The notes beneath the pieces were generated by a model that saw only the letters and a program-made list of their open reading frames with translations, was not told the DNA's origin and searched no databases. The translations under genes were made by a program, and so were the position numbers. Below, in pieces: positions 6,737-57,569 of a DNA stretch of 64,000 nt. How positions within the stretch are numbered: the stretch's first letter is position 1; every line of letters starts with the position of its first letter. The stretch spans positions 1,088,001 to 1,152,000 of the forward strand of contig CM000436.1 in assembly GCA_000165345.1 (NCBI GenBank), given 5' to 3'.

Positions 6737-6737
6737 C

Positions 6738-13197: not shown

Positions 13198-14370
13198 ATG
13201 ATACCACAAGGAGGATTAAACAACTCAGGAGGCGGAATAATGGCTCCTTCCTCTGCATCTACAGCGCCACCATCATCTTCTTCCTCCTCATCTTCATCTT
13301 CTGCTCCTTCTATGCCATTACATTCTTCAAATTCAATGGCAGCTTCTGTGCCATCCTCTAATTCGGCATCATCATCTAATTCAGTACCATCCAATTCTCT
13401 TTCAGCTTCTATTAGTGGAAAGGTACAACAGAGAATTTCTCAAGGAGAACTTGGAATAGGTGGAGGGATCCCAAATCAAATTTCTGTTTCAGGAGATGTA
13501 GGAATTTTACCATCACCATCAGATAATAGTGGTGACTTGAAAGGGAATGAAAATATTATCCAAAAAGAAAGAGAGAAAGTTTATCAATATTTAGTTGATA
13601 TGACTTGCTCTTCAAAAAGAGAAATGGCATTATCAAAACTTTCAAAATATCGCGAAACATTCCCAGATTTGGCTCCGCTAATGTGGCATAGCTTTGGTTG
13701 TATTACTGCTCTTTTACAAGAAATCATTTCTATATATCCACTTTTATCTCCTCCTAATTTATCAAATCAAGCAAGCAACCGGACATGTAATTGTTTAGCC
13801 TTATTACAGTGTGTTGCAAGCCATTCGGAAACAAGAGCTCACTTTCTTGCAGCTCATATTCCACTATATCTTTATCCTTTTCTAAATACTGTGACTAAAT
13901 CACGTCCATTTGAGTATCTCCGTCTCACATCACTTGGTGTTATTGGCGCCCTTGTAAAGGTTGACGATCCTGAAGTTGTGAGCTTTCTTTTACAAACTGA
14001 GATCATTCCTCTATGTTTGAGAGTGATGGAAACTGGAAGCGAACTTAGCAAGACTGTCGCGACGTTCATCATACAAAAAATTCTGTTGGATGATCTTGGC
14101 CTTACTTATATTTGCGCTACTCCTGAAAGATTCTTTACTGTGTGCCAAGTTCTTGGTAATGTTATTACTCAGCATAATGAGGCTCCTTCCCCGAGACTAT
14201 TGAAGCATATTATTCGCTGTTATCTAAGATTATCAGAGAACTCCAAAGTTAGAGATGCTTTGAAACAAACCATCCCTTCTGTCATTCTTTCTCCCAGTTT
14301 TAAAATGATCTTTCATGATGACGGCGTTACTACTAAATGGTTACATCAACTATATGCAAATATTTGCTGA
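13198..14370 (+). CDS. CNOT9 (RCD1): CCR4-NOT complex subunit CNOT9 / Rcd1 (cell differentiation protein RCD1 homologue), with an N-terminal Ser-rich extension.
   Basis: Conserved armadillo-like core [59 protein letters not shown]...[35 protein letters not shown]...[63 protein letters not shown]. Start is an ATG. Confidence 0.85.
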
Positions 14371-14949: not shown

Positions 14950-17636
14950 ATGTCGGGACATCCATTTGGAAATTCAGTTGGCGGGGGGGCAATGCAATAC
15001 TCACAACAGACTCAGATTCCCCAACAACGCCCAGGTACAGTAATGTCATCTCCTTTTCAAGGAGTGGCAGAGGCAGCACCAAAAACTAGTCCATTTGGAA
15101 TGCAGGGTCAATATCAGGCTCAAAGCCAAACTATAGGACAAAATCAAGGTTATTCACAAAGTGGAGGATATTATGGTTCAAGTAATGATAATACTATGCA
15201 AGGTCAGAATAGAGTTAGACCAGGTATGGTGATTCCAACAGGAATGGGACAACAAGTTCAAGGTCAAAACCAAACTCAAACTGGTTTTTATAATTCGAAT
15301 CCTATCTCAAAAGATATTGGAAATAATACAACAATAGGAGGACTATCAATGAGTGAAATACAACAACTTAATGCTCCATCATATTTTGTAAGACCATCCG
15401 TCTCAAAAGTCCCAAGTTCAGCAAGTCTTAAACAGAAAGCCCATATTCCTGTTGGACTTGTTTTTCAACCTTTAGCAAGTCCGCCTCCTGGATATCCTGA
15501 AGTACCAACAGTTTCTTTTGGGTCAAGTGGTGTATTAGTTAGATGTAAGCCTTGTAGAACTTATATTAATCCATTTGTTAGATGGGAAGCTGGTGGTCGT
15601 CGTTGGATATGCAATATGTGCGGCTATTCTAATGAAACCCTTTCATTTTATTATTGCGGATTGGATGATCAGGGACGCAGAACTGATCGATTTGAACGTC
15701 CTGAACTATCTGTTGGTAGTACTGAATTTATTGCATCTGGAGAATATATGGTAAGACCTCCACAACCTCCAGTATATTTTATAGTTTTGGATGTTTCAAT
15801 GCCATCAGTATCTTCAGGACTTGTTGAGACAGTTTGTTTAGCAGTAAAAAATGCTATATTATCTGATAATATTCCAGGTGGAGGTAGAGCTATGATTGGT
15901 ATTATTACATTTGATTCATCCATTCATTTTTATGATTTAAATAGTAATCTTTCACAACCACATATGTTTGTTGTATCTGATTTGAATGATTTATTCCTAC
16001 CACTTTCTGAAGGTGTTTTGGTTAATATAGCAGATTCTACTGAGGTAAGTTAAATAATTGATTGACTTTATCATATATTTAATTATTATTGTTATTGTTA
16101 TTGCAGCAAATTACGAATTTGTTAGATAACTTACCAAATTTATGGAGAAATAATAGAGTTTCGGAAAATTGTATGGGATCAGCAATTAAAGCTGCTTATA
16201 TGGCAATTAGACATATTGGTGGAAAAGTTCTTTTATTTTCATCAGGAGCACCAACAGTTGGAGATCAAACAATAAAACTTAATCGTGAGCAGATGAGAAA
16301 TTCTGGAAAAGAATCCAAAGATATTGATAGAGAAGTTGAATTATTAAAACCAGAAAATGATGGATATAGTAATTTTGTTCATGCACTTGTTAGAGCATAT
16401 ATTAGTGTTGATTTGTTTATGTGTACTTCTCAACCGTATGTAGATTTACCTACAATTTCTCCAATTGTCAAAAAAACGAGTGGTGATCTTACATATATTT
16501 TTGGATTTAATTCGTATCTTCACGGACAAAAACTTAGAGAAGATATATTTTCAACTTTAACTAGAAACTCAGCTTGGGAGGCTTGTATTAGATTCAGAGT
16601 TAGTCGTGGTTGGAAGATATCAAATTGGTATGGTAATTTCTACTTTAGTGGGGTTGATCTTCTTCTTGCTCCAAATTGTCATAGAGACCAAGCTTTTAGT
16701 ATTGTTATAGATATGGATGAAAATGTAACAGTAGCACCTGATCCATTTGTTTATATTCAAGCAGCTCTTTTACATACAAATAGTGATGGTGAAAGACGTA
16801 TTAGAGTTCACACAATGGCTTTACCAGTAACTCAAAATTATGTTGATTTAGTATCAAGCATGGATGTTCAAGCAACAGTTTCAATAATTTGCCAAAATGC
16901 AATGGAACTAAGCCTTAAAAGCAAGTTATTAGATGGACGAAATTATCTTCAGACTATATGTTCCCAAATCATTTTACCTCAATCCAATCAAATAATTGAA
17001 GCTGCAAAGCAACTTCCACTCTATATTCTTGGTGTACTCAAATGTCCAGCTTTTAGAGATTATAAGGAAGTTTCTCAATCAGATACTAGAATTTATCATT
17101 GGATACGCTTATCTAGTTTGAGATTAGAATCTCAAATGATACTATTTTATCCAAGAATGTTTTGTCTTTCTTCATGGAATCTTCAACAACAAGAAACTGA
17201 TCAATCATTAGTGCTTCCTCCTGCCTTAAATTTAACAGCAGAAAAAATGACACAGGCAGATGCATATCTCTTAGAAGATGGTGAATCCATGTATTTATGG
17301 CTTGGAAGAGCGATTCCAACAACCTTTATTCAACAGGTGTTTGGCGTTGCAACTCTTGATCAGCTACATCCAGATTATGCTGAAACTGTTATTGGATCAA
17401 CTGGTGAAAAGCTTGGAGTCAAAGTTGCTATTTTAATCAATAATATTCGTGAACAAAGAAAACCGCCATTTATGAAGCTTTATACAATCAGACAAGGCGA
17501 TCCTTTGGAAAATAAGTTCTTCCTATCACTGATTGAAGATAAGACACAAGGCTTTATGCTTTCTTACAACGATTTCTTGAATAAGATTCTTCCAAGATCA
17601 AATCCAAACATGTTGCAGAGATATCCTGGTAATTAG
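14950..17636 (+). CDS. SEC24: COPII coat subunit Sec24. Two exons, join(14950..16044,16107..17636), with a 62-nt phase-0 intron at 16045..16106.
   Basis: Exon 1 carries the Sec23/24 zinc finger CKPCRTYINPFVRWEAGGRRWICNMCGYSNE. Exon 2 carries the trunk, beta-barrel and helical regions (GSAIKAAYMAIRHIGGKVLLFSSGAPTVG...). The two ORF-track pieces (14950-16053 and 16089-17636) are joined by GTAAGT...TTGCAG. The track 'M' at 16089 is an intronic TTG. Confidence 0.85.
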
Positions 17637-20020: not shown

Positions 20021-20378
20021 TTCAATAAATAAGTAAATGCAAAAGTACTAATAATTCATTTAAAAGAAATAATCAAGTTATATTTAAATTTAAGTTTGTT
20101 AATTTTTTTTCAAACAATTTTATTAATTTTTTTTGAAAATCATTCCAAATTTAAACTAAATAAATAAAACTAATTTTTGTTGAAAGGAGAATAAAAAAGA
20201 ACAATTTAAGAAGATATAAACTAATTAATTTAAAACTCCTGTTTCACTCTTATTAAAAATCACTATGTTTTAATTAATTTTTTTTTAATGTTATTTAATT
20301 TACTATCTTGTTTTTTCTATATTCCTATTTAATTAACTCAATTTAGGAAATTCATGTAAAATTAAATCATGGAAATTG

Positions 20379-23304: not shown

Positions 23305-23356
23305 TGCATGCACATTATCAAATATTTGAACTGGCGCCACTCTTTGGCGCCAACCG
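23305..23356. promoter_or_regulatory. TTGCATGCAC ... CTGGCGCCAC ... TTTGGCGCCAACC, upstream of the PI 4-kinase gene.
   Basis: GCATGCA plus two GGCGCC E2F-like palindromic sites. Confidence 0.45.
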
Positions 23357-23802: not shown

Positions 23803-26800
23803 ATGGTAGAAGGATGGCTAACCACTTCAAAATCTATGTCAGGTTTGTTTGGTAAAAGCTTGATTTCAAAGCAAAAAAGTACAAGTGGAAGTATAAATTT
23901 TAATGATGATGAATTAACAGATAACATTGTAGTAGATTTAGGTGACTTTTCAAATAATAATAATAATAAAAGTGATAACTTATATTCTAGAAAAGATTCA
24001 AAAGGAGGAGAATTTGATAAAAGTAAAGGCTCACTACTGAGATTATTTCAATCAGATGTATTTGATGCTCACCTACATTTATATTATATATATCATCATA
24101 AAGAATTTGGAGTTCATGAATATCTTGTAAACTTATTATATGAAAGATCTGATGAGATTTTATGGTATTTACCACAATTATGTGAAATATCTTTAAATAG
24201 ATTTGAGAAGAGTAGCCTTTGGAAATATTTTCTTGATAAATCGAGTGAAAATATGAACTTTTCTTTGATACTTTCTTGGATGTATCAAGCAATGAATGAA
24301 GATAATATACCATTAATTTCAGAATATGCTCAAAATATGCTTCAAGAAATTGAAATGGCAATGGTAAATAGCAAACTTAAGCCTGATATTAGATATATAG
24401 AAAAGAGATTATATTTTTGGAGAAGGTCCAATTTATCTGTTTTTCAGTCACTTTGTAATCAAAATATGAAATTGAATGATATTGAAGATGAATTTAAAGA
24501 TAATGATAACACAATGTTAATGAATCGTGAAAATACCAATACTCAATTATCTTTAGCAATTTACTCAACTCTTCCTAGTAGTGAAACAATAAATTTGAAT
24601 GAAAGTGATGATTTAAATCAAGATGATAATAATAGAATAATATCTTCAGATATAAATACAAATACGATTCCAAATAATAATTCAAAAACAATTAAACTTT
24701 CATCTTGTGATGTTTTACCTGATATTTGGATTTATAGAATTATTAATGATGATTTTAGTTGTGAAAATAAAGCAAAGATTGAATATATACAAACAAAACT
24801 TGGATTAATAAATCGTCAATTTAAGAATTTATATTCAAATGCAACTTGTGCTGCTTATTATAATCCAAATCCAGGAACATCTTTAAATTATAAAAGTGGA
24901 GTTTCATCAAGTGCTTTTGGTTCATTAAACTCAGGATTTTTACCAACAAGTATAATATCAGGATCATCATCTTTTGGTACATTTAGTTCAGGTGGAAATT
25001 CTAATAAAGTTTCAATACCTTACTTTTTCTTTTCAAAATTAGGTTCTCCATTTGATTTAATTGATGTTAATAAGATAATAAATGATATTCAATTTAGATC
25101 AAAATCTAGAATAAACTTGATAAATAAGAGCCATAATTTTAATGTACAAGATAATAGTTCTGAAGATACAGTATCTATTCCAAAAACCCCAAGAGACGTG
25201 ATAAGAATTACTCATCCTTTTTCTCCTTGTTCAGAAACAGAATCAGAAACTAACAATTTGGATTTGGATGATAATGGTACTTTTGAGGAGATAAAATTAG
25301 CTCCAGATTCAAATGTTTGTAGTGATAATGATAATAAGAAGATACCAATATTAACACCAAATTCAACCAAAATAATAGAATGCTTAGAAAATTTATCAAA
25401 TGAGAATTCTGGTTCCCCAATACAATTAAATGATGATATTCTTAGAAATGAAGAAATATTTAAAGTATATATATCTGAAATTGAAAAAGAGAGTGAAACA
25501 CTTTATTATTTACTTAAACAACATAGATATAATTACTTTAATAGAGTAAATCAACTTGTTTCACAATTTCTTGAAATTTCAAATTACTTGCAATCAAATA
25601 TTAATAAAGAACATAGATGTGAGATTTTGGAATTTATTATAGAAGAATTAAATCTTTGGCTCTTTTATTCAAGATTTTCAATTTCAATTTCAAGAACAAC
25701 ATTTTTATTAAATAGTATTTCTTTACCAATGCCATCATTTAATAATGAATTTTGTAGTAGATTTTCAGAAAATGATAGTTTTAATTCAAATAATAAAGAT
25801 GGGAATAGTAAAGGTATAATTGGATTTTCTCACTCAGATTATATTATGGATAAAGGTTTATGTTCTCTAAATAATTGCCAATTTTTACGTATAATTCCAA
25901 ATGAATGTAAAATTTATAATTCCAGAAAAAGAGTTCACTTTTTATTAGCAATTGAAATTGCAGATCTTGATGATCAAGATTATGAGCTTGGAAAGAATTC
26001 TCAAGATTTAATTTCTAAGGATATTTTAAATTATCTCAAAAATCATGGAATTAAACTTAAAACTGATAATAATGATGAAAATCAAAATAGATCCCAAGAT
26101 ATATTGCTTAATTTTCTTAATATACTTTCTGTTGGTATTTCAGAATCAATTGATATGGGCTTATCTCAAGAAGACTTTAACCAAATAACTTTTATTGATA
26201 ATAAAGATTCTGATGAGATTGAAGATTCTAGTATTCATGATAATGAATTAAGTGATGAAGATATATTTATTAATAAAGATTGGCCTCAAGAAACTTGGTC
26301 AAGTAAGATTAAGAGATATAGAAAAGAATCACCCTACTCAAAATTAAAGAGTTGGGGTATTAAAACACTTTTGTTAAAATCCTCAGATGATCTTAGACAA
26401 GAATATCTTGCATCTCAATTACTTCAACAATTTGATTGGATTTTTAAAATTAATAAATTACCCTTATGGCTTCATCCATATGAAATACTTGTAATTGGTT
26501 CTCATGGTGGATTTATTGAATATATTCAAGATACTTTCTCCATAGATAGCCTTAAACGTAGATTCCAGACTGATAATCTTTTGAATTGCTTTGATCAGTT
26601 ATTTAAAGATGAGGAACTTAAATCTAAAGCAAGGAAATGTTTTGTTGAAAGTCATGCTGCTTATAGCCTTGTTAGTTATTTCCTTCAAGTTAAAGATAGA
26701 CATAACGGTAATTTCTTAATTGATAAGCATGGCCACATTATTCAAATTGATTACGGGTTTATGTTAAGTAATTCTCCTGGTAATGTAAATTTTGAGCAAA

Positions 26801-27147
26801 GTCCTTTCAAATTAACTCAAGAATTTCTTGACGTCATGATGGGTGAAAACTCTTCTGATTTCCAATATTTTCAACAACTTATTATTAAAGGATTCTTAGC
26901 CTCCAGAAAACATGTTGACCAAATTGTTTTAACCATTGAATCTATGACTTCAGCATCCAAACTTCCTTGTTTCTCTTTGTTTACAAACAAGGAATACTTT
27001 ATTCAAGATATTAGAGATCGTTTCTTTCTTCATCTTACTGAGGAACAATGTGTTGTTAAAGTCACAGAATTAATTCAATCTTCAATAAATAATTGGAGAT
27101 CCATTCAATATGATGCATTCCAACGAATTACCAATGGAATTCTTTAG
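23803..27147 (+). CDS. PI4KB (PIK1-like): Phosphatidylinositol 4-kinase of the PI4KIII-beta / Pik1 type, 1114 aa.
   Basis: C-terminal PI3K/PI4K catalytic domain: LLKSSDDLRQEYLASQLLQQFDWIF...LWLHPYEILVIGSHGGFIEYIQDT...HAAYSLVSYFLQVKDRHNGNFLIDKHGHIIQIDYGFMLSNSPG...FKLTQEFLDVMMG. Start is an ATG. Confidence 0.85.
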   Translation: MVEGWLTTSKSMSGLFGKSLISKQKSTSGSINFNDDELTDNIVVDLGDFSNNNNNKSDNLYSRKDSKGGEFDKSKGSLLRLFQSDVFDAHLHLYYIYHHKEFGVHEYLVNLLYERSDEILWYLPQLCEISLNRFEKSSLWKYFLDKSSENMNFSLILSWMYQAMNEDNIPLISEYAQNMLQEIEMAMVNSKLKPDIRYIEKRLYFWRRSNLSVFQSLCNQNMKLNDIEDEFKDNDNTMLMNRENTNTQLSLAIYSTLPSSETINLNESDDLNQDDNNRIISSDINTNTIPNNNSKTIKLSSCDVLPDIWIYRIINDDFSCENKAKIEYIQTKLGLINRQFKNLYSNATCAAYYNPNPGTSLNYKSGVSSSAFGSLNSGFLPTSIISGSSSFGTFSSGGNSNKVSIPYFFFSKLGSPFDLIDVNKIINDIQFRSKSRINLINKSHNFNVQDNSSEDTVSIPKTPRDVIRITHPFSPCSETESETNNLDLDDNGTFEEIKLAPDSNVCSDNDNKKIPILTPNSTKIIECLENLSNENSGSPIQLNDDILRNEEIFKVYISEIEKESETLYYLLKQHRYNYFNRVNQLVSQFLEISNYLQSNINKEHRCEILEFIIEELNLWLFYSRFSISISRTTFLLNSISLPMPSFNNEFCSRFSENDSFNSNNKDGNSKGIIGFSHSDYIMDKGLCSLNNCQFLRIIPNECKIYNSRKRVHFLLAIEIADLDDQDYELGKNSQDLISKDILNYLKNHGIKLKTDNNDENQNRSQDILLNFLNILSVGISESIDMGLSQEDFNQITFIDNKDSDEIEDSSIHDNELSDEDIFINKDWPQETWSSKIKRYRKESPYSKLKSWGIKTLLLKSSDDLRQEYLASQLLQQFDWIFKINKLPLWLHPYEILVIGSHGGFIEYIQDTFSIDSLKRRFQTDNLLNCFDQLFKDEELKSKARKCFVESHAAYSLVSYFLQVKDRHNGNFLIDKHGHIIQIDYGFMLSNSPGNVNFEQSPFKLTQEFLDVMMGENSSDFQYFQQLIIKGFLASRKHVDQIVLTIESMTSASKLPCFSLFTNKEYFIQDIRDRFFLHLTEEQCVVKVTELIQSSINNWRSIQYDAFQRITNGIL

Positions 27148-27300
27148 TACCTTTCATTTACACTTGTATCGCTATTAATGATACAGGAATATTTCTTTTC
27201 TTTTAATAATAATAATAAAATCTAAAATATAACCTTATATTTTTATTAATTATTTCTCTCTTTAAATAAAATTCACTCTTTTTTCAACTATTATCCACAT

Positions 27301-27361
27301 GACGTCATTTTTATTGCATGCATGCAGTGGCGCAAATGATAACAATAATTTGACACGTAAT
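27301..27361. promoter_or_regulatory. Module GACGTCAT - TTGCATGCATGCA - GTGGCGCAAA - GACACGTAAT in a convergent (3'/3') spacer.
   Basis: Same element vocabulary as the upstream modules, but located between the stop codons of the PI4K gene (27147) and the 27525-30761 minus-strand gene. Confidence 0.4.
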
Positions 27362-27524
27362 TATATTTATTAAATGTTAAATAACAGACATTACAAAACA
27401 CGGAATGAAAAGAAATTAAAAAAAAAATCATTAATATCCAATGCTAGTACTATCTATATTAGATACAAAACATGCAACCTATCCAATTAATTGTGAAACT
27501 AATTTGTGAGCAAAAACGAACCCT

Positions 27525-30500
27525 CTAATTATTATTCCACATATTGTTATTATGTTGTAGGAATCCAGAATTACTACCAGTTCTAGACGAATGGAAGCCT
27601 GGGAAATTTACAGAAGTTTGCTTTGATTGAGCAGACCCAACTTGTCCTGCCTGGCCAGCCGTATTCTGTGCTCTTCCTGGTAGAAACATGCTTGAATTGC
27701 CAGAACTTGAATTACCTCCAACTCCCTGGCCTTGGTGAGCTAAATCCATTCCTGAACCTACCGTTGCCCCATTTACAGCACCTGAAGGGTTGCCAGGTGC
27801 GGAATTACCACTTGTACCATTTGGAGTACCAGAACCAGTATTACTCGACCCCGATCCAGCTGGTTTACCTATATATTGTATATTCCCCTGAAAGTTGCTA
27901 GCAGCGCTTTGGCTATTGCCTTTAGAATGACTGTTTGGATTACCAGTATTTGGATTTCCTTGAGAATTAATGTTTGCATTAGATGTAGGATTCTGAATGT
28001 GGCCATGATGGTTACCGTAGCTTTGGTGATGTATAAAATCTCCTGGATGAGCTCCAATATTATCCAGTTTATTGTTATTAGTAGTACTTGGTTGTCCCAA
28101 AAAAACTGCTTGAGGAATTGTCTGATCTACACCAAACTCGTTTGATCCCCCATTATTATTGAAACCCATTGGTAAATTCATCTGATTTTGTAGAGAATTC
28201 CCACTTCCATTTGGCTGTTGGCTTCCTATACCCATTTGCTGGTGTGACATACCTGGAGGAAGAATTGACTGAATATTTTGGTATGAACTTGGATTTTGGC
28301 TACTCATGTGATGATTATGTGCAGAATTTCCTCCCATTGTTATCGGTGATTGGTTATTTGACGAGTGATAGTTCACACCAATACCATCAGATACCATCAC
28401 ATTTCCAGATGTATTGTTATTAACTGCCGTATTTCCTGATCCCCCTGCTCCACCTCCAATTCCATATACTCCGTTCAATCCATGTTGACTTGGATTTGGT
28501 CCTTGTGAGTATTGATTAAAAACTGGAGTTGGGTGATGATGGCCATTTGGCTTAGTATTATAATGAGGGAAACCAAATGCTGCAGTATTTCCAACCATAT
28601 AGGGGAAATTTGCCGTATATCCTGCATAGTTCAAATATGCATAGTTATATGGATTTGCTGCTGCTGCTGCTGCTGCTGCTGCCGCTGCCAAAGCCATATT
28701 AGAGTTATTCCCATTAGATGCACTGCCTGAATTACCACCATTTGATCCAGTACTGCCGCCTACAACTGTCTCGTTATAATTCATACCGCTATTACCAGAT
28801 AATAAAGTTGGATTTGATGAATAAACACTACCACTACCTACCATTCCTTGTCCTGCTATTGGTAAGTTGTTATAGTTATTAATTGCACTCCCAGAAATTG
28901 AGTGACCCATATATCCATTTCCAATACCAGAAGATTTTATAGAAGTATGTACATTGGATCCAGACACACCTGATCCTCCAGAAGAAACTCCTGATCCACT
29001 ATTTCTCTGTGAAGCATTTTGGTGTAATAGTCCTTGATCTACAACCATACCACTCGTAGAACCATCTTTTGATGGAGATGAACCGCTAGTATTCCATCCA
29101 TTCAATAAATGACTTCCTGTTACACCAGCACCACCAATTCCACTTGTATTTTCTGAAATACCTGTCACTACCGACATGGCGCCAACATTTGAAGCCCCAA
29201 TATTACCAGTGTGACCCCCCCCAGCTGTATATGAGGAATTAGTAGAAACCCCAGATGATTGATTTTGGACGCTATTGGAGTTATTATCAGAAACTATACT
29301 ATTATTGATTTGGACTTGATTTTCTGGAATTTTGCTGATATCAACAGCACCAAAGCTACCAAATAGGAGTCCATCATTAGCATTAGGATCGATTGTTCTA
29401 CCTTCTGGAAGAAATACTCCAATTCCATGTGACTTATAATCAATTCCACCACCTATTTGTATTCCATGTGGTGGGGAAATTCCTCCAACTTTAATTCCAA
29501 GGTCAATTGCAGTAATTCCAGAACCAGTCATTGAATTTGGTGAGTATATGTTCGAGGTTGATGGAGAGGAGCTTTGAGTATTATCGTTGACAAAATTTGA
29601 AGATACAATCTGTTCTTTTATAGTCTTTTCAAAAGGCTTTGATATTAAGCTAGAAGTTTCCTGTGTGTTTTCTTGTTCCTGATGTTGTCTGGTAGAAGCT
29701 GAGTGATCTTGTGATAATTTCTCCTTAGTTATAGTATCATTTGAGGAGTTCTTATGATCTTTATTGTTACTATTAGTGGTTTGAGACTTTTCTAAAGTAC
29801 TTCCGATATCCTTATTATTGTTTTTGCGAGCCAAATTAGCCCATGTAGTAGTGTTATCTACTGGATTATTGGAGATACTTGCTTTTGTAGCGCTAACATG
29901 AGTGACAACTGGATTTGAACCAATTGTTGTTGCGACCTTTGAAGCATTATTTGATTCTTGTTGTATACTTTGATCTCCTGTTGTTCTTGCCTGGTGAGAG
30001 TGATTTTGGTTTTGTGTTTGAGTATGACCATGACCATGACCATGACCATGCCTCTGTCCGTGGCCATGACTATGGCCTTGAACATGGCCTTGGCCATGAC
30101 CATGACCGTGACCGTGACTGTGACCGTGATTGTGATTGTGATTGTGACCATGACCGTGTACATTGTGCTTAATAGACTTGTTATTGGACTTGTTATAGTT
30201 TGTATTAGTACCTTCGACATGGTTTTGGCTTTGGTTTTGGCTTTGGTTTTGGTTCTGACTTTGACTTTGGTTTTGAATTTGACTTTGATTATTTTGCGAA
30301 TGAGTTTGTTTACCAGATTTAATAGAATTAGTATTATTAGAATTCTTATTCCTATTGACATTATTGTTATTTACATTTGTAGAATTTGTGTTATTTTGCT
30401 TTAAGCCTCCATTTGTCCTATTCTTACCAACCTTTGTCCATTGCCCTGATTCATGACCACTAAAATCCTCAATGACATTGCCTACAGCAAGTTCTATTTG

Positions 30501-30761
30501 ATTGGCATCGTAATGGCATCTATGTATTAAATCAGAAATCTCATTTAGATTGAAGTTATATGGTTCTAATACAGGGGTCAATTCTCTGACCCACTTTGCA
30601 GTTCTTGGAGACATGGGAGTATCAACAATAGCTGGTTGAACATTTATTCTTCTATAATAGTCCTCATTTATTGTAGAATTTGGCTCCTTAGAATTAGACT
30701 TGTTATTTCCTGCAATAGCAGAATTCTTATTAGCTCTCAAATTTCTTGCTCGAGCTGACAT
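27525..30761 (-). CDS. 1078-aa Gln/Asn/Gly/Ser-rich low-complexity protein with a (His-Gly/His-Asn)n tract, a poly-Ala run and a short structured N-terminal segment. Function unknown.
   Basis: ATG start and uninterrupted ORF. HGHGHNHNHNHGHSHGHGHGHGQGHVQGHSHGHGQRHGHGHGHGH is encoded around 30040-30170. A run of 13 Ala is encoded by the (GCT/GCC)n tract at about 28645-28690. Confidence 0.55.
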   Translation of the reverse strand: MSARARNLRANKNSAIAGNNKSNSKEPNSTINEDYYRRINVQPAIVDTPMSPRTAKWVRELTPVLEPYNFNLNEISDLIHRCHYDANQIELAVGNVIEDFSGHESGQWTKVGKNRTNGGLKQNNTNSTNVNNNNVNRNKNSNNTNSIKSGKQTHSQNNQSQIQNQSQSQNQNQSQNQSQNHVEGTNTNYNKSNNKSIKHNVHGHGHNHNHNHGHSHGHGHGHGQGHVQGHSHGHGQRHGHGHGHGHTQTQNQNHSHQARTTGDQSIQQESNNASKVATTIGSNPVVTHVSATKASISNNPVDNTTTWANLARKNNNKDIGSTLEKSQTTNSNNKDHKNSSNDTITKEKLSQDHSASTRQHQEQENTQETSSLISKPFEKTIKEQIVSSNFVNDNTQSSSPSTSNIYSPNSMTGSGITAIDLGIKVGGISPPHGIQIGGGIDYKSHGIGVFLPEGRTIDPNANDGLLFGSFGAVDISKIPENQVQINNSIVSDNNSNSVQNQSSGVSTNSSYTAGGGHTGNIGASNVGAMSVVTGISENTSGIGGAGVTGSHLLNGWNTSGSSPSKDGSTSGMVVDQGLLHQNASQRNSGSGVSSGGSGVSGSNVHTSIKSSGIGNGYMGHSISGSAINNYNNLPIAGQGMVGSGSVYSSNPTLLSGNSGMNYNETVVGGSTGSNGGNSGSASNGNNSNMALAAAAAAAAAAANPYNYAYLNYAGYTANFPYMVGNTAAFGFPHYNTKPNGHHHPTPVFNQYSQGPNPSQHGLNGVYGIGGGAGGSGNTAVNNNTSGNVMVSDGIGVNYHSSNNQSPITMGGNSAHNHHMSSQNPSSYQNIQSILPPGMSHQQMGIGSQQPNGSGNSLQNQMNLPMGFNNNGGSNEFGVDQTIPQAVFLGQPSTTNNNKLDNIGAHPGDFIHHQSYGNHHGHIQNPTSNANINSQGNPNTGNPNSHSKGNSQSAASNFQGNIQYIGKPAGSGSSNTGSGTPNGTSGNSAPGNPSGAVNGATVGSGMDLAHQGQGVGGNSSSGNSSMFLPGRAQNTAGQAGQVGSAQSKQTSVNFPGFHSSRTGSNSGFLQHNNNMWNNN

Positions 30762-32515: not shown

Positions 32516-35500
32516 TTAAATAATACTAGCTTTGATAATTTCAGAAATTTCCATCCTTTCATGATTACTAATCATATTTGAAAGAATATTAGAATTGTTT
32601 GAGTTACCAGAAAATAATGGTAAGAGTCTTGAAACAATATATTTGTTATTCAAGTGGAATATTAGAAATTTAACTGGCCAAACCCACCAAAGTACTCTAG
32701 ATTTAACTTGAGTTACATCTTCAAAATCGTAAATGTCAACAAGATCATTCTGTCTGAACCTATTATAATACAAAATAGAGAACTTATAAAGTTCTAATAT
32801 AATTGTTTCCAAAATTGAATCAAATTGCTGAAGAGATACTCTGAAATTCATTCCGCTTCTAATACTTTGATTATTTTGATTGATAATGAGATCATAGGGC
32901 ATAGAATTCTCACATAATCGTAATAGATCAGCTATATCAACCTCGAATAATATCGGAGATTCAAAGAAAAATGCTTGTTTAGTTCTGTATTCACATAATG
33001 ATGGAATTTTAATAATGATATGGTTTATAATTCTTGGTTGATTTTTTGAGTTTTCCATCAACCATTTAATTTCTGTAATAGATGAAAAGCCTGTCAAATT
33101 GTAAAATTCTGTAATAAATTCTAGTAAAGTTTCATCATTATGAACCATACTTTGGATATGGAAGATTCCCATAATCAAGCTTTTGAATATATCAATTCCT
33201 TCTTGAGAAATATCAACATTTTCATTTAAATGTGAGACTTCAATATTATTACCAACAGAAGTAGCAAAGATATCAAAAATTTGTTTGACTAGTGGATTAA
33301 TATTAACGTTTTGCTCTAATGCTGAGAGAATATAGTAATTAATAAACTCTGCAATCTGTAACAATATCTCTATCTGTGTATCTACATTAAAGATATCGTT
33401 TCTAATACTTTTAATAAATTCCTTATTCTTATCATCATTCATGTCTCTCTCAATACAAGTTTGAGATTGCAATAATAATGATCTTCTTTGAATTAATGTG
33501 GGATCTTGTTGCATTTTCAAAACCTGCAAGTGTATATCAGACAATAAATCAAAAATATTTTCAAGCCTTTTCCCACCTTGGATGAAACTTGAGCTAGAAA
33601 CTCTTCTTTTGTAATTCTCAAGGCTTTTTTTCATAAAATCTTGCATTTTAACGATTTCATCATTATTTACTTCTTTAAGTATAGTTGAAGAGCTCAAATC
33701 CTTCCCCCTTGAAACCGACTTTAATACATCTGATTGAGTTCTTAAAATCATTGAATTCACTCCAGGAGTAATTTTCCACAAAGCTCTAGACTTTGAGTAG
33801 TAATATTGACCAGCAGAAAGGTATTGCTTAGCATTATAAAGCAGATAACCCTGATCTTTCTTAAGATTATTTTCATTGTTGTAATTGTTAGAAATCAGTG
33901 CTAAACTATTATTTACACTTGGTTGATCATTTTCTAATTTATTAGTAAAATTATTGCTATATCTTTGCTTTGTCAACAAACCAGCTGTAGTATTGTCAAA
34001 ACTACCAGAAGTTTTAGTATTATTTATTAACCCTGGACTCTTTTGTTCTTTATTTTTATTACCTTTAATACTATATCTGTGGGTATCATTCAAATGAAAG
34101 TGCTCCAACCAATTCTTTAAATAAATTGAGTGCTCACTAAATTGAAATACTGATATACATAAATTCTTTATTAGCCAATTTTCCAATCTATCCCCGCCTT
34201 TTCTGCTAACTATTTCTTCATGTACCGTTTTTTGCATGCAAGAATCAATATATGACACGTAAGAAAATAAATAATAGTGGAGCCATTCTTTGCATGTGGA
34301 CAAAAATGATTTTTGGCTTTGTTTATTGAATTTTAAATTGTAATTGGACTCTTGTTGTTTAAGTCCGCAAAGAATGAATTCAATGATAGATGATTTTTTT
34401 TTAAGAATATTTTCTCTGTGATTTTTAAACGCAGAGAGTCTATCTTCAAGAAGTTGCTTTTCAGAAGCTGTGTTTGTATTTTTCAAATGATTGAATGAAA
34501 CATCTAGTTCTCTAAGATAGTCAAAAGATGGGTCATCGACAAGATCAACTTTTGAAAGGAACATTTCAATTTCCACGATATATTCACTATAAATTATATC
34601 CAAGGTATGTTGAAGATTTTGGTAAATCCATAGAGAACAATGGAATTCATAAGTATAAATGGATCTGACAGCATGGGTTATTGAAGAAGTTTTGCAGAAT
34701 TCAAGTAAAGTTTTGCACCCGCTTTGTTCGAAATTTACTATTATATCTTGAAAACTCATCAGCCTGTTGTTATATTGAGGCTCGCATTGATTGATTTCAA
34801 AAAGTAGAATAGAAAGGAAGTATTTAATGAAAGAGTTTGACTTTGAAATATGACTAGAAAATTCCGAAATTGAAGATGGAATGTGTATTTCAACTTTTTC
34901 TCCATTTGAAAGCCAAGGAGGTAGGAGTCCTGTATGATGAATGTATTCAGATTGGGAGTTAATTAGAGTAATAATGGATGGAATCTCCTTCTTGTAATAT
35001 AAAAGGCTCAAAACAATATTCAATGGTACCTCATAAATATTTTCAAATAAAATGGACATTATCTGTGGATGTGATGAATTCCCATGTTGTTCATTACCTT
35101 TGACTTTAGGTCTAGATACGCGAGTTAGGTTCCTACGAGCCAAAAAGTTCTCATTGTGAGATGCTTTATTTCTTTTGTTAATGATTACATCCTTATTTAA
35201 GGAAGATATGCTGTGCTCAATTGCAACCTGTTGAGATGTGATTAAAGAATATTTCGAATTTGATGGGATTGCAGACATATATTGGGATGCCGAAAGAATG
35301 TTATATCTGAATAATAGACGAAGAATAAATTGGAGTCCTTTATTATTTGATAATTCAAATAGTGTAAATTTCGTCAGTGATTTCTTCAAAATATCCATAT
35401 AAGTAAAACATAAAATTGCTTCGTTTGTTATCCTGGCATTATATTTCAGTCCAAGTGGATAAGTCTTACAGAAAAGATTCATCATTTCCAAAATTTCGAT

Positions 35501-38500
35501 GGTTTTTGAAACAAAGTTCTTAACTTCAATAAATAACTGAAGCTCAGAAATATTCAATAAAGAGTATGAATTAGAATTGGAATTAGAATTTGACTTTGAA
35601 TTAAAATTTGTGTTTGTTGAGTAATGATTTGCAAGATATACTTCATCTTCATTATTATTACGGTTAACCTCCACATTATAATTTGGGAACCACCAAGGTA
35701 ACAATAAATCTAAGAGGTTATTAATTGGTATTAAATTATTCTTCAGATGTGTAATATGTTCTTCTTTTAAAGATGAAAATATTGTCACTGAAATCGAATC
35801 ATTCATGGCAAAATCATTCGTATTATTTTCTGGAATAAGCCCATTGTCTTTGTTACTCATTTTTTTGCCATTATAAATTACTTCTGAAGATCCTGAAGTA
35901 TGAACTTGATTATGGGTTAACCAATCTGAAGCTTCAGATTTAAAGAATTCATTAATGCAAGAATTAATCTCCAATACCACATTCTTGTTTTTACAGCTAG
36001 AGGATTTCTGAATATTAGAGTCTTTCAATAAAAAAAAGCTGTTTTGATAAGAATGGCAGAAGTTGTCTGAACTATCAATCTGAGATTTAATAAATTCTGA
36101 AACAAATTTAAGACCATTATCATTTAATGAAAAATCTTTTGATTCAAACTCATCGTAATCATTGCTCTGATTAAGTTGATTCTTCAATAAATCATCTTCA
36201 TCAATGTATTTTGAAAAGTCTGAAGAATTTTTACTAATTAACTCAAAGCTAGTTTGTTGGAATAAAGGAATATCCCAAATACTCCTAATAATTCTTCCAA
36301 TTAGAAGAATTAGCCCTTTGCATCTAGGAGTAATAGCTAATTTGTGATTACAAGAATTAATACTCAAAAAGCAGTTCGAGTTTGACCTAGATTGTATATT
36401 TATATCTGTTAAAAGAGTAAGCCAAATCTTAATTAAAGTAATTGAAGGAAAGTCATTTTGAGCAAAATTCTTATCAAACATTTCAAAATCTTTATTTCTA
36501 ATATGGATTTCAAAAGGATTATCATTCTTGATATCGTTTGAGTAAAATCTTTGTATAAGTTCAGAATCGAGGATTTCTTTGGTATTCATTCCAATAATAC
36601 CTTGCCAAATTAAGGCAAAAAATTGTTCAAAAGTAATAGTTTGAGCAAAAGTACCTAAAAGTTTCATAACAAAAGTAATTGATCTATTATTTTGTAAACT
36701 ATCATCCTTAGATCTTCCTCCAAAAGATCTTAAACCATTCATTGGACTGAAACATTCATGATCATCAAAAACATTCATCATAAAAGAGTAATTATGTGGC
36801 TCCAAAGTCATCTTTGTAATAATATCCAAGAGCCTTTTTTTTTCCAAAATAAATATTCCCTTGGTTGAAATGATTGTCCAGTATCTACATTCAGTTATTT
36901 GATCTAAAATCAAGTCATTTAGTCCATTTGGAGGACATTGGGGAATGTTTATACCAAAAACAGAACATGATGTTGATGAATTCAAATATTTTTGAATTAA
37001 GCAATGTGGTTTGGCTTCTTCATTTGTTTCATTAGTATAAACAGACTTGGAACTTAATCTATTAAAGAAATATCTCCAAAGATGGAAAAATTTTGACCCA
37101 GAAGTTCTACATCCAAATCCTGATAAATTGTTATTAGAAAGTAGTTGATCGTGATTTGAAGCTGAAATATTTGGTCGAATTAAGAGGATTTCTTTCAAAT
37201 TATTATTTCCATAAGAAAATGGATTTGGAGTATTCCAAAGATTCTCGAATAATCTCTGGTATTTATTTGGTACATTTCTTTCTTGTATACTTAAAATAAG
37301 TCCCAAATTTGGATCAGAAAAAGAGTAATTCCATTCATTAAAGTAAGGAGGTGTATTTTGTACACTGGAAGATCCCAAATTTCTATTGGATAAATTCTTT
37401 GCAATAATTGTTTGATCAATACAAGAAGCTGATATACTTGAAGTAATTAATGATAATATTGCCTCATTATCATCACATAAATTCTCAGAAATTTCACCAA
37501 AATTCATTTCAGATCTTTGTGAAAAGATGGATTCTGGTAAATCTAAACCGTCTCCCATGTTTACAGTGGTTAAAATAGAAACTCCATTCGAATAAAGACT
37601 TGAATTAATCAATTTTTCTTCAGAATCTTCTGAGATTATCGAAGTTTTTTTAAACTCTTTAACTCTCATATTTATTGGAATTGAATAATTCAAATTATGT
37701 AGGAATTGATTATTAAATTGTGAATTAGAAACAAAGCAAGGTTTATTTCCACACTCAAAAACAGATTCTAAATATATACGATCTCCATGATCAGTAACTA
37801 AAATGGCATAAATAAAGTCACTTTCTTGTGGATTTGTGGGATGAATTGAATGAATATTAATATATGAAATAAAATTGGAGTTCTTCTTTTGTTGAATAAC
37901 TGATGATTGTTTCTTATTATAATTTGCATTAATTAATTTACTTAATTCACTTTTTAAAGTATTAATATTCAATCTAAATATTAAATTAATTGGTGTAAAA
38001 GAATTCGAGCTTAAAGTATTTGAACTTAAGTATTTTGTTAAAAAAGCACTTAAAGAATTTGAAGAATTTTCTTTTTCAATATAAGTTAAATCATCTGAGA
38101 TTTTTTTGATCAGAAAATTTCCTATTGGTATTAAAAATACATCAATATCTGAGTTCAAATAAAGCACATAAAGTAAACCTCTAAATTCATCAATAAACAT
38201 GGATTTAATACAACTCTGTGATTGACCAAAGAAATAATTTCGAATAAATCTTGGTAAATATGAAATAAAATTATTACCAGAAATCTTTATTAATCTAGCA
38301 AATGAATGGGTTTGATTATCATTATGAATAAATCCAGATATTTTCTGAACTTTTCTTTTTATCCAAGAATTTTCTTGTTCCATTGTATATTCATAAACAC
38401 TACCAGTATTACCACATCCGAGAAAAAATCTTCCTGAAGCTTGATGAGAAATAATCTTAGTAAAAGAAATATCTTTAAATCCAGAAAGAGAATGGTAACT

Positions 38501-39184
38501 ATCTTTTATACGATTAATAATATAATTTCCATTTGTATTTTTTATAATATTTAAAAGTATAATATAGTAATTCGTACAAACTAAAATTTTTATTAAAGAA
38601 GAGCTTTCATCCTCTATAGATCCAACACTGGTAATTATTGCTTTTTTATTGGTATTTTCTTGAAAGAATTCTTCAGTTTGAACAGAATATATGGGATCAT
38701 CTTTTGACCAATTCCAAAAAATTATCTCATTTTCATAATATATATAAAATATACTATGATTATTTAAAGTTTTTGATTTCAAAGCTAAATTTTCTGAAGA
38801 GAGTTTATAAATTAAATTTCTTCTATCATTGGAATCTTTTAAATTCAATTTCATACTTTTTAAATTATTTAAAATGGCTTGTTTAATTTTTTTGGGAAAA
38901 TATCCATTTAAAGCTTTAACTTCAAATGTTTCTGGTCGATATTCATAATCTGTTGAATAAATACCTTTAAGAAAATGGCTTAATTCAGAAAATTCTTCAT
39001 CTTGTTTAATACAAGAATTTAAAGAAATTCCAATAATATTAGATTTTGAAATGGTATCTAATGAATTATTTTCTTTATTCATTAAGTTTAAAGANTTCTC
39101 CATATTCTTTCCTCCTTTATTTATTTGGTTTCCAGTGTCAAATTGGAAAAAATCTTCATTTCTGGTACGAATATTATTAAACAT
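32516..39184 (-). CDS. NUP155-like: Very large nucleoporin of the Nup155/Nup170 family, 2222 aa, expanded by low-complexity inserts.
   Basis: The N-terminal beta-propeller region aligns by eye with Nup155: IIFWNWSKDDPIY with DIFMWNYEDGGDLAY, and GRFFLGCGNTGSVYEYTMEQENSWIKRKVQKI with [31 protein letters not shown]. A long alpha-helical C-terminal part follows. ATG start. One N base at about 39091. Confidence 0.6.
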   Translation of the reverse strand: MFNNIRTRNEDFFQFDTGNQINKGGKNMEXSLNLMNKENNSLDTISKSNIIGISLNSCIKQDEEFSELSHFLKGIYSTDYEYRPETFEVKALNGYFPKKIKQAILNNLKSMKLNLKDSNDRRNLIYKLSSENLALKSKTLNNHSIFYIYYENEIIFWNWSKDDPIYSVQTEEFFQENTNKKAIITSVGSIEDESSSLIKILVCTNYYIILLNIIKNTNGNYIINRIKDSYHSLSGFKDISFTKIISHQASGRFFLGCGNTGSVYEYTMEQENSWIKRKVQKISGFIHNDNQTHSFARLIKISGNNFISYLPRFIRNYFFGQSQSCIKSMFIDEFRGLLYVLYLNSDIDVFLIPIGNFLIKKISDDLTYIEKENSSNSLSAFLTKYLSSNTLSSNSFTPINLIFRLNINTLKSELSKLINANYNKKQSSVIQQKKNSNFISYINIHSIHPTNPQESDFIYAILVTDHGDRIYLESVFECGNKPCFVSNSQFNNQFLHNLNYSIPINMRVKEFKKTSIISEDSEEKLINSSLYSNGVSILTTVNMGDGLDLPESIFSQRSEMNFGEISENLCDDNEAILSLITSSISASCIDQTIIAKNLSNRNLGSSSVQNTPPYFNEWNYSFSDPNLGLILSIQERNVPNKYQRLFENLWNTPNPFSYGNNNLKEILLIRPNISASNHDQLLSNNNLSGFGCRTSGSKFFHLWRYFFNRLSSKSVYTNETNEEAKPHCLIQKYLNSSTSCSVFGINIPQCPPNGLNDLILDQITECRYWTIISTKGIFILEKKRLLDIITKMTLEPHNYSFMMNVFDDHECFSPMNGLRSFGGRSKDDSLQNNRSITFVMKLLGTFAQTITFEQFFALIWQGIIGMNTKEILDSELIQRFYSNDIKNDNPFEIHIRNKDFEMFDKNFAQNDFPSITLIKIWLTLLTDINIQSRSNSNCFLSINSCNHKLAITPRCKGLILLIGRIIRSIWDIPLFQQTSFELISKNSSDFSKYIDEDDLLKNQLNQSNDYDEFESKDFSLNDNGLKFVSEFIKSQIDSSDNFCHSYQNSFFLLKDSNIQKSSSCKNKNVVLEINSCINEFFKSEASDWLTHNQVHTSGSSEVIYNGKKMSNKDNGLIPENNTNDFAMNDSISVTIFSSLKEEHITHLKNNLIPINNLLDLLLPWWFPNYNVEVNRNNNEDEVYLANHYSTNTNFNSKSNSNSNSNSYSLLNISELQLFIEVKNFVSKTIEILEMMNLFCKTYPLGLKYNARITNEAILCFTYMDILKKSLTKFTLFELSNNKGLQFILRLLFRYNILSASQYMSAIPSNSKYSLITSQQVAIEHSISSLNKDVIINKRNKASHNENFLARRNLTRVSRPKVKGNEQHGNSSHPQIMSILFENIYEVPLNIVLSLLYYKKEIPSIITLINSQSEYIHHTGLLPPWLSNGEKVEIHIPSSISEFSSHISKSNSFIKYFLSILLFEINQCEPQYNNRLMSFQDIIVNFEQSGCKTLLEFCKTSSITHAVRSIYTYEFHCSLWIYQNLQHTLDIIYSEYIVEIEMFLSKVDLVDDPSFDYLRELDVSFNHLKNTNTASEKQLLEDRLSAFKNHRENILKKKSSIIEFILCGLKQQESNYNLKFNKQSQKSFLSTCKEWLHYYLFSYVSYIDSCMQKTVHEEIVSRKGGDRLENWLIKNLCISVFQFSEHSIYLKNWLEHFHLNDTHRYSIKGNKNKEQKSPGLINNTKTSGSFDNTTAGLLTKQRYSNNFTNKLENDQPSVNNSLALISNNYNNENNLKKDQGYLLYNAKQYLSAGQYYYSKSRALWKITPGVNSMILRTQSDVLKSVSRGKDLSSSTILKEVNNDEIVKMQDFMKKSLENYKRRVSSSSFIQGGKRLENIFDLLSDIHLQVLKMQQDPTLIQRRSLLLQSQTCIERDMNDDKNKEFIKSIRNDIFNVDTQIEILLQIAEFINYYILSALEQNVNINPLVKQIFDIFATSVGNNIEVSHLNENVDISQEGIDIFKSLIMGIFHIQSMVHNDETLLEFITEFYNLTGFSSITEIKWLMENSKNQPRIINHIIIKIPSLCEYRTKQAFFFESPILFEVDIADLLRLCENSMPYDLIINQNNQSIRSGMNFRVSLQQFDSILETIILELYKFSILYYNRFRQNDLVDIYDFEDVTQVKSRVLWWVWPVKFLIFHLNNKYIVSRLLPLFSGNSNNSNILSNMISNHERMEISEIIKASII

Positions 39185-40002: not shown

Positions 40003-41462
40003 TTACTCCAATACAGAAACAATGGGTTTTTGTCTTTCTGGAAGTGGTTTTGATGAATCTTTGGTATGATCTCTAAGATTCTGTTCTCTTTTTTTCTTGG
40101 CATTAATCTGCACAAGTTTTCTTTCTTGAATTGATTTAATCATCTTTGGCACGTGATGATGTCTGGAAATCTTTTTAATTTCAGGTAAATGCTGGTATCT
40201 ATCAATAAGCTGATTTCTATAAGCTAATGTTTGTCTTTCTCTATAAGATCTGGGTCCAAGTGGTTGACTGGCTTCATTTTTTCCATAAACGAACACAAAA
40301 ATCAGATGAGCCACTCACAATAAATNTACCATCAGCAGTNAATTTAGTANCCCATACATTATGCATTCTTTTTGNATGATAAATATCTNTANAAGCACCT
40401 TGGTCAATATTAAAATATTCTNATAGTATTATNTNTTACTACCAGCAACAAAAACTGTTTCCCCATTGGTATTATTANTCAACATCTAAAAACAGCATGA
40501 ACCAAAACCTTTTANATNTAAAATCTANCCAATGGTTAAGCCTTTTCTTCATAATCAAAATGTTATATAACATTGTAAATNATCATTAAGCAATATTGTG
40601 AAATATTAATNGGTTGGTCTGGAGGCGTNCCAACAAATATGCCATTTGGATTTTATTTTGATNAAANAACNNTNNNTNANNCTGTTGATGATCTTATATC
40701 AAATAGTCCAACAGAATTATCAGAAGAAACTGTTGCAACAATATGAGGCTCACTTGGATTAATTTTTGCAGAATAAACAGTTTCATTTCCCCATTCAAAT
40801 TCTTGTAATGGCGTACTTCTATGACGATCCCATACATGCAAACCACCAACTCCACTACTTATTAATACACCACTATTCCAATGGTGATCTAAACTATATA
40901 ATTGATTATTTGCAAGAAATGTAGTTTCAGGAATAATTGCTTTTGAAAAGCTAGAAATATTATCATATCCATTAAATACATCCTCAACATTTCCTCCATC
41001 TTCTAATTCCATTAAATTCATTTCATTTACAGATTCTCTTTTAGATATTTTCCACATTTGTAATTTCTTATCGTCACCACATGAAAATAAATGCTTATCA
41101 TTATTTGTAACACATAATCCACGTACTGCTCCTTCATGTGCTCTAATCATATATTCACATCTTCTGCTACCTGCTAAATTCCAATATCTAATAGTTCCAT
41201 CAAATCCACCACTATATATATCAGAAAGATGATGATGAGCTCTTGCTAAACATTGAACAGTATCTGAATGACCCTCAAATACAGAAACCAAAGGCTTTGA
41301 AAACATTTTCCTTAATTTTACGCTCATTAATGCTCTGCTATATTCTCTAGCTTTCTCAAAAGGGTGGATATTTGGATCAGGATTATGATAAATCCTTTGT
41401 ACGGAACCTTTCGATCTATCTTGATATTTATTTACATCTCTTTGTAATACTTTAACTTTCAT
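40003..41462 (-). CDS. SOF1 (DCAF13): U3 snoRNP / DDB1-CUL4 associated WD40 protein Sof1 (DCAF13). The reading frame is interrupted by an N-rich low-quality segment at about 40320-40690.
   Basis: The N-terminal piece (41462-40653) carries HPFEKAREYSRALMSVKLRKMFSKPLVSVFEGHSDTVQCLA...GGFDGTIRYWNLAGSRRCEYMIRAHEGAVRGLCV...SCGDDKKLQMWK. The C-terminal piece (40314-40003) carries the Sof1 C-terminal domain (RQTLAYRNQLIDRYQHLPEIKKISRHHHVPKMIKS). The spacing between them fits one gene of about 480 aa. Confidence 0.75.
40320..40690. other. Low-quality, N-rich assembly segment inside the Sof1 gene.
   Basis: Dozens of ambiguous bases (n). The ORF track breaks here. Confidence 0.9.
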
Positions 41463-46827: not shown

Positions 46828-47114
46828 ATTGTCTTATTAATGGTCAAATTAATAATTACCAGAAATTAAAAGCAAATCAAATCTAATCAGATTTATAAAA
46901 AATTGTAAAGTTTGATTCTAAAATTTTTTTTGTTTGAAGTAAAATTTAAAGATTAAAAAAATAACAATTGAACTATTTTATTTTTTTATCTCCAAACAAA
47001 CATATTCATAAAATTAAACAGAATTTTTCCCAGAATATTACACAAAAAATATTTAATCTATTATTAATATCATAATCAATTAAGCTTTTTGAATTTAAAT
47101 TAAATTAAAAAAAA

Positions 47115-48160: not shown

Positions 48161-48188
48161 CTCATGCATGCAATTCACACGTAATAAT
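48161..48188. promoter_or_regulatory. TCATGCATGCAATT-CACACGTAATAATT, overlapping the stop codon of the 48175-49599 gene in a convergent spacer.
   Basis: GCATGCA followed by CACGTAAT. Same pairing as at 27315-27361 and 41763-41780. Confidence 0.4.

Positions 48189-57533: not shown

Positions 57534-57569
<36 letters not shown>

Follow-up and report, generated by a model that had tools for sequence, protein, structure and literature searches.

Three convergent spacers and their motifs

The window analysed here is a 64,000-nucleotide stretch of C. parvum DNA that contains several pairs of genes meeting tail to tail. A preliminary description had placed full promoter-type modules, each combining GCATGCA, a GGCGC core and an ACGT-containing element, in three of the spacers between such genes. 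The first spacer (site 1) is 377 bp long and runs from the stop of the PI4K gene (27147) to the stop of a minus-strand gene (27525), a true 3'/3' arrangement. The PI4K protein is encoded at 23803-27147, is confirmed by Pfam and has its closest named relatives in C. ubiquitum, C. canis and C. felis. The third spacer (site 3), also a true 3'/3' arrangement, measures 591 bp between the stops of a Nudix and an SNF2 gene, and both of these domains are likewise confirmed by Pfam. Scanning the window for the motifs verified a cluster in each of these two spacers, at 27293-27361 and 57363-57416, so that two of the three proposed modules are real. The site 1 spacer holds the following features.

27293-27300, plus strand: ATCCACAT, a form of motif 5 (TTGTCCACATK) with one mismatch
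27300-27307: TGACGTCA, a CRE-like palindrome
27315-27326: TGCATGCATGCA, two overlapping ApiAP2 sites of the AP2_1 type (BGCATGCAH)
27329-27333: GGCGC, an E2F half-site (TGGCGCAA)
27351-27361, plus strand: TGACACGTAAT, an ACGT-core element
27425-27476: a second conserved block (AAATCATTAATATCCAATGC...ATACAAAACATGCA; AAATCATTAAT.T.CAAT.C.A.TA ... ATACAAAACAT)

The site 3 spacer is built from a similar set of elements.

57195-57286: block L, a conserved AT-rich non-coding block (CTACCAGCTAAAATA..TATATTACTA..ATTAAAAT) present in four species
57363-57370, plus strand: ATCCACAT, motif 5-like
57380-57389: TGCATGCATG, an AP2_1 site
57392-57396: GGCGC, a half-site (TGGCGCTC)
57405-57416, minus strand: AAAATGACGTGT, an ACGT-core element and the reverse complement of ACACGTCA

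An (ATA)n microsatellite also lies in this spacer, at 57535-57569; its C. parvum copy far exceeds in length those of chipmunk genotype I, C. ubiquitum and C. canis.

The remaining location, site 2, between a TMEM147-like gene and a minus-strand gene, did not hold up as a module of the proposed kind. No GGCGC was found in 47808-48190, and the sequence in question is largely coding or 3'UTR. Its features are listed below.

47089-47597, minus strand: Cp_lnc_396 (CPATCC_0004783), a published lncRNA antisense to the TMEM147/DUF2053 gene
47115-47807, plus strand: true extent of the TMEM147/DUF2053 gene (DUF2053 confirmed by Pfam), whose open reading frame is broken by frameshifts near the N at 47571
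48097-48110: ATATGAACATGTAA, a decayed composite
48165-48172: TGCATGCA, non-coding, directly 3' of the minus-strand stop at 48175-48177
48178-48185, minus strand: CACGTAAT, coding, the last codons (..Y-Y-V-stop) of the gene at 48175-49617

The TMEM147-like stop at 47600, which had been taken as the edge of this spacer, is a frameshift artefact. A 229-aa protein of C. ubiquitum places the real stop at 47805-47807, the true C-terminus (..INLNFNRKRETISNNKKE*) sits in another frame that ends at 47807, and the true spacer is 367 bp long. In the IOWA-ATCC sequence this frameshift is an artefact of assembly or annotation. We also ruled out CACGTAAT as a spacer motif, as it is coding sequence of the minus-strand gene at 48175-49617. 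The TGCATGCA element follows the stop codon of that gene and precedes its first AATAAA, which likely places it inside the 3'UTR of the rolling-stone-like gene, and C. ubiquitum and C. canis keep a TGCATGCA after the stop too. The C. parvum composite ATATGAACATGTAA aligns with ATGTGGATGCATGCA in C. canis and ATGTGGACATGCA in chipmunk genotype I, two species in which CCACAT is inverted at this site, while the module is absent from the C. ryanae spacer. We therefore treat site 2 as a weaker relative of the other two, consisting of a 3'UTR-embedded TGCATGCA and a composite that C. canis and chipmunk genotype I retain intact but that has decayed in C. parvum.

Composition, non-randomness and conservation of the modules

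Motif counts were compared with 500 segment-wise shuffles in which dinucleotides were preserved within each gene or spacer. Sites of the TGCATG[CT]A type number 19 in the window against 2.6 expected, and 13 of the 15 copies of GCATGC lie outside ORFs. The pair of CCACAT and TGCATGCA is present three times in 64 kb where 0.04 are expected, and the triple of CCACAT, TGCATGCA and ACACGT, also observed three times in the window, did not arise in any of the 500 shuffles; within any single spacer the shuffle frequency is at most 0.001 for the triple and at most 0.005 for the pair. A chance clustering of short GC-containing words in AT-rich spacers, without function, would fit the shortness of the individual motifs and a GGCGC part that is unconserved and fails the E2F consensus. 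It does not fit three observed pairs against 0.04 expected, nor a triple that is present in the same order in four species at site 1 and again in four at site 3, with a per-spacer chance of at most 0.005. Chance is effectively refuted by the shuffles and the conservation, and we give it next to no weight.

The conserved core consists of ATCCACAT or GTCCACAT, TGCATGCA and an ACGT-core element (ACACGTAA / TGACGTGT). Hence the GCATGCA and ACGT parts of the module as first proposed are retained, the GGCGC part is not, and the CCACAT element had been overlooked. The AP2_1 consensus BGCATGCAH is matched exactly at all three sites (TTGCATGCATGCAG, GTGCATGCATG and ATGCATGCAA); these predicted ApiAP2 binding sites show the usual strong non-coding bias. 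Motif 5 is matched at 10 of 11 positions at site 1 (TTATCCACATG) and at 9 of 11 at site 3, and exactly in the C. canis (TTGTCCACATG) and C. felis (TTGTCCACATT) orthologs. The ACGT elements resemble bZIP sites with an ACGT core, as in the CRE TGACGTCA or in G/C-box hybrids such as TGACGTGT. Site 1 combines a perfect CRE with TGACACGTAA, and site 3 has TGACGTGT, although the likeness is one of resemblance only. The half-sites share the GGCGC core of E2F/DP1 sites ([A/T][C/G]GCGC[G/C][A/T]; TTGGCGCCAA, TTTGGCGGGAAA), but TGGCGCAA and TGGCGCTC have A or T in place of G or C at the seventh position and fall outside the consensus. As GGCGC, moreover, is not kept at site 1 and is kept at site 3 in only some of the species, E2F was rejected as a part of the module. 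Elsewhere in the window 17 of 21 copies of GGCGC belong to the full palindrome GGCGCC, which is common in the 5' regions of the window genes.

We compared the orthologous loci of C. ubiquitum, C. canis, C. felis, C. ryanae and chipmunk genotype I. Gene order and tail-to-tail arrangement at sites 1 and 3 are conserved in every species with synteny, which bears out the earlier statement that the modules are not 5' promoters of the flanking genes. Absence of the modules from orthologous spacers had been named as an outcome that would refute the proposal; instead the core is kept in four of five species at each of the two sites.

At site 1 the core is found in C. parvum, C. ubiquitum, C. canis and C. 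felis, the last three of which share the order GTCCACAT, ACGT element, TGCATGCA and (TG)ACACGTAAT. In these orthologs the ATCCACAT of C. parvum is kept in the form GTCCACAT. All three keep the overlapping AP2_1 sites and none keeps GGCGC, while of the CRE-like palindrome C. ubiquitum and C. canis retain only the (G/A)ACGT part. The downstream ACGT-core element is conserved, in C. felis as the inverted TTACGTGTA. None of the site 1 motifs was found in the orthologous spacer of C. ryanae. C. ubiquitum and C. canis share the second block of spacer 1, C. felis has some of it, and the block probably belongs to the 3'UTR of the minus-strand gene at 27525-30761.

At site 3 the core is found in C. parvum, chipmunk genotype I, C. 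ubiquitum and C. canis. Across these four species ATCCACA is invariant, as are all 12 bases of AAAATGACGTGT. The AP2_1 site TGCATGCATG is kept in chipmunk genotype I and C. canis and is degenerate (TGTATGTG) in C. ubiquitum, so that TGCATGC is present in three of the four. GGCGC is present in C. ubiquitum, is CGCGC in chipmunk genotype I and is absent in C. canis. The C. felis spacer is only 106 bp long and lacks the module, and in C. ryanae synteny is broken at this site. Block L may belong to the Nudix 3'UTR, or it may form the 5' portion of an RNA transcribed leftward from the site 3 module; a search of it for a conserved ORF, RNA structure or covariation found none.

The elements are independent of strand. 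The ACGT core is inverted in C. felis at site 1 and stands in the opposite orientation at site 3, and CCACAT, as noted above, is inverted at site 2 in two species. This bears on whether the elements could act in RNA, as 3'UTR signals bound by RNA-binding proteins (for example at UGCAUG-type sites) that control stability or polyadenylation. Such a role is most plausible for the TGCATGCA of site 2, given its place between stop codon and first AATAAA, and it would agree with the plus-strand AATAAA that directly follows the site 3 module in all four species, as well as with CCACAT preceding the other elements on the sense strand of PI4K, Nudix and the gene at 32516-39184. A strand-specific RNA signal, however, would not tolerate flips of orientation between species and sites; no RNA structure was detected at the modules (z-scores 0.1-1.4), and the motifs are known DNA-binding sites of ApiAP2 proteins. 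Because the elements are conserved, tolerate inversion and match known or inferred DNA-binding motifs, recognition looks to be at the level of DNA, and we regard an RNA-level role for the modules as improbable.

The spacers were also searched for hidden genes, since the preliminary description had offered very short unannotated genes and structured RNAs as candidates. The only RNA gene in the window is a tRNA-Ala(AGC) at 6664-6737; the GCATGC at 6698 lies inside it and is not countable as a promoter-type motif. A short protein-coding gene or small structured RNA gene, with the module as its ordinary promoter, would account for the length of the module-bearing spacers (288-616 bp, longer than those free of modules) and for the extra conserved blocks at 27425-27476 and 57195-57286. 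Against it, the three spacers searched alone gave no Rfam family even at E <= 1, with only noise at E ~0.7, and no tRNA fold or match. The longest spacer ORFs are of 38-56 aa and carry frame-breaking indels between species, their tblastn matches were short, in multiple frames and followed the blocks conserved as DNA, and no covarying structure was found. We consider a hidden gene very improbable, and this part of the earlier proposal is not supported. Alignment-free 7-mer footprinting of the spacers was also tried and set aside as too noisy in AT-rich sequence.

The tail-to-tail spacers of the window and the orthologous loci fall into two size classes, of 17-205 bp and 288-616 bp. The shorter class is without the motif cluster, as in the 53406|53438 pair of the window (31 bp) or the C. 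felis SNF2|Nudix pair (106 bp). The C. ryanae spacers are long (616 and 466 bp) yet have none of the motifs. At sites 1 and 3 the module lies 146-324 bp past the PI4K and Nudix stops and 163-214 bp past those of their convergent neighbours.

Yeast has 3' nucleosome-free regions with antisense promoters as well as factor-mediated roadblock terminators, and roadblock termination by DNA-binding factors is established there. By analogy, proteins bound to the clusters might halt Pol II arriving from both convergent genes and so prevent read-through or collision in a compact genome, with no stable transcript being made. The position of the clusters in mid-spacer between two 3' ends suits this idea, as do the facing AATAAA signals that flank the C. 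parvum site 1 at 27265 (plus strand) and 27366-27371 (minus strand). The bracketing nevertheless does not extend to C. ubiquitum, C. canis or C. felis, and a module set exactly between facing poly(A) signals was discarded as a general feature. Moreover, other convergent pairs manage on 17-205 bp without a module, as C. felis does without site 3, similar composites stand inside long ORFs, where a roadblock would be harmful, and genuine lncRNA 5' ends have an excess of this motif pair upstream of them. We think a boundary or roadblock role unlikely, though worth keeping in mind.

Published antisense transcripts and the case for 3'-end promoters

Approximately 10% of C. parvum genes have antisense transcripts, whose initiation is poorly understood. 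Li et al. 2021 (PMC7840661) reported 396 C. parvum lncRNAs, most of them antisense and with a bias towards the 3' ends of their sense genes, and the 100 bp upstream of these lncRNAs are enriched for E2F/DP1, AP2_1 and three more motifs including TTGTCCACATK, motif 5 (PMC7840661, Table S3). From a tally of that table, 11 of the 18 lncRNAs with motif 5 also have TGCATGCA, against 2.5 expected (Fisher p = 2e-6), and in 9 of the 11 co-occurring cases motif 5 is the nearer of the two to the lncRNA 5' end. The GTCCACAT/TGCATGCA pair is already in the published tables, although no attention was drawn there to its joint occurrence. Neither the 25 motifs reported upstream of mRNA genes nor the motif table of a 2025 review includes GTCCACAT, and a literature search with GTCCACAT strings returned primer sequences only.

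Sites 1 and 3 are like the lncRNA promoters of Li et al. 2021 (PMC7840661) in that they lie at gene 3' ends and have an AP2_1 TGCATGCA together with motif 5 and an E2F-like sequence nearby. They differ in that E2F is present only as a half-site, that the ACGT-core element is outside the five published motifs and that no listed transcript starts at either site. Among the lncRNA sequences of PMC7840661 that were covered, k-mer searches within spacers 1 and 3 and out of them in both directions gave no match, the ordered table holds no antisense RNA for the genes flanking these sites, and no mapped lncRNA 5' end among those covered lies within approximately 100 bp of the motifs. This silence counts against antisense promoters at these sites and in favour of the roadblock, as does, on the former count, the absence of the module from sites 1 and 2 in C. 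ryanae and from site 3 in C. felis. The newer CpBGF annotation contains 766 lncRNAs. TGCATGCA has several ApiAP2 binders, female-specific ones among them, and the AP2_1 binders include cgd2_3490, cgd1_3520, cgd8_3230, cgd5_4250 and AP2-F. Sporozoite ATAC-seq peaks are reported to be dominated by the E2F motif and to be without AP2 motifs, and the modules are therefore probably closed in the sporozoite stage, which also weighs against antisense promoters.

The sole catalogued lncRNA near any of the sites is Cp_lnc_396, at site 2. Its C. parvum IOWA-ATCC sequence matches the window, including the ambiguous base at 47571, and its 5' end is 568 bp away from the site 2 TGCATGCA. The extent of this lncRNA mirrors the truncated CDS annotation (47115-47600), and its expression correlates with the sense gene and with both neighbours alike (r 0.7-0.8). 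For these reasons it is weak evidence for site 2 and was rejected as proof; it could be read-through or strand leakage.

The reading that we prefer, to which we give roughly even chances, takes sites 1 and 3 as conserved regulatory modules that act at the level of DNA and drive antisense transcripts from gene 3' ends. Two observations favour small antisense promoters: this motif pair also occurs ahead of mapped antisense lncRNAs, and the position at gene 3' ends fits. The two sites are probably further members of a class already known in C. parvum, the antisense promoters at gene 3' ends. The lncRNA part of the earlier proposal is supported as far as the motif pair goes, while transcripts catalogued by Li et al. 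2021 (PMC7840661) that start at sites 1 or 3 are lacking. Each module would offer double-stranded-DNA sites to a putative factor at the GTCCACAT-type element, to an ApiAP2 protein at TGCATGCA and, at the ACGT core, possibly to a bZIP-type factor. We infer that proteins bind there and that the modules have promoter activity; a module would then be a small transcription-factor-bound promoter in the gap between tail-to-tail genes, launching stage-specific non-coding antisense transcripts back over the 3' end of a neighbouring gene.

The direction of transcription can be predicted from the order of the motifs. CCACAT is usually nearer the lncRNA 5' end than TGCATGCA, and the predicted transcripts therefore run leftward. 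At site 1 a minus-strand transcript would start at ~27230-27277 and be antisense to PI4K, and at site 3 one would start at ~57300-57347 and be antisense to Nudix. We infer this direction purely from motif order in a published table with an ambiguous strand convention.

Comparable arrangements are found in other organisms. Siegel and colleagues reportedly described 3'-end antisense transcription in Plasmodium falciparum in 2014. Like yeast and P. falciparum, C. parvum has a compact genome, factor sites between convergent genes and 3'-end antisense RNAs, whereas the factors and motifs are different.

AP2_1 sites are classically found upstream of mRNA genes, whereas those described here occupy 3'/3' spacers or, in the case of site 2, a probable 3'UTR. 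The window also has sites of the classical kind. The 5' region of PI4K has a TGCATGCA at 23305 and two GGCGCC (23305-23352), and that of Nudix has two TGCATGCA at 55932-55948, so this type of site stands at both ends of both genes. The modules could therefore be downstream, enhancer-like elements of a flanking gene, with the same ApiAP2 factors acting at both ends of PI4K or Nudix, or with a distal action on the convergent neighbour. AP2_1 sites in the PI4K and Nudix promoters are what this idea would lead one to expect, and conservation, which reports constraint without specifying its target, agrees with it equally. However, downstream enhancers are not described in the Cryptosporidium literature examined, and GTCCACAT was reported upstream of lncRNAs and was not among the motifs found upstream of mRNA genes. 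An enhancer-like role appears to us quite unlikely.

Sites 1 and 3 are two concrete and experimentally tractable candidate antisense promoters, one of which adjoins PI4K, a drug-target gene. That antisense RNAs start from gene 3' ends was already known in C. parvum, and the advance is a modest one. What is new is the identification of two specific and deeply conserved candidate sites, and the recognition of GTCCACAT, TGCATGCA and an ACGT core as a recurrent composite that is also present inside long ORFs. If confirmed, the motif pair with the ACGT core would help to predict antisense starts genome-wide and guide the search for the GTCCACAT-binding factor.

Composites inside genes and annotation artefacts

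The most regular composite outside the spacers lies at 34233-34301, inside the minus-strand ORF at 32516-39184. It consists of TGCATGCA, TGACACGTAA 22 bp on and ATGTGGAC 39 bp further. The spacing is identical at the orthologous loci of C. ubiquitum (20274-20341), C. canis (14215-14282) and C. felis (13858-13925; coordinates of the respective loci), and the motif words are among the longest invariant runs in a coding stretch that is 83% identical. It may be an internal or antisense promoter. A further intragenic cluster, at 3549-3663 in the plus-strand ORF at 1849-4977, reads ATGTGGAC .. ACACGTCA .. TGCATGTA .. TACATGCA .. ATGTGGAT and is nearly mirror-symmetric.

A broader, more tentative suggestion, which we hold to be possible but appreciably short of an even chance, is that GTCCACAT, TGCATGCA and ACACGT(A/C)A form a dedicated three-part regulatory code that was already present in the common ancestor of C. 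parvum and C. felis and has been retained. Such a code would mark a distinct set of non-5' control elements, in convergent spacers and at sites inside long ORFs such as 34233-34301. A putative GTCCACAT-binding factor and an ApiAP2 protein would read the code, which would switch on stage-specific antisense transcription or insulate convergent genes.

Annotation artefacts of the IOWA-ATCC assembly, of which the TMEM147 frameshift is one, can mislead analyses that set motifs against genes. A WD40 gene (474 aa) at 40003-41462, which is one gene in other species, is broken here by approximately 40 ambiguous bases (Ns at 40325-40681). The published 'lincRNA' Cp_lnc_395 (CPATCC_0004745) maps to this region, with a match at 40290-40318 on the minus strand; its sequence encodes part of a WD40 protein (..SGSSDFCVRLW..), so that a non-coding nature is improbable. 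Sec23 likewise appears as two adjacent ORFs (14950-16053 and 16089-17636), split by either a short intron or another frameshift, and is a single gene of 875-876 aa in C. ubiquitum and C. ryanae.
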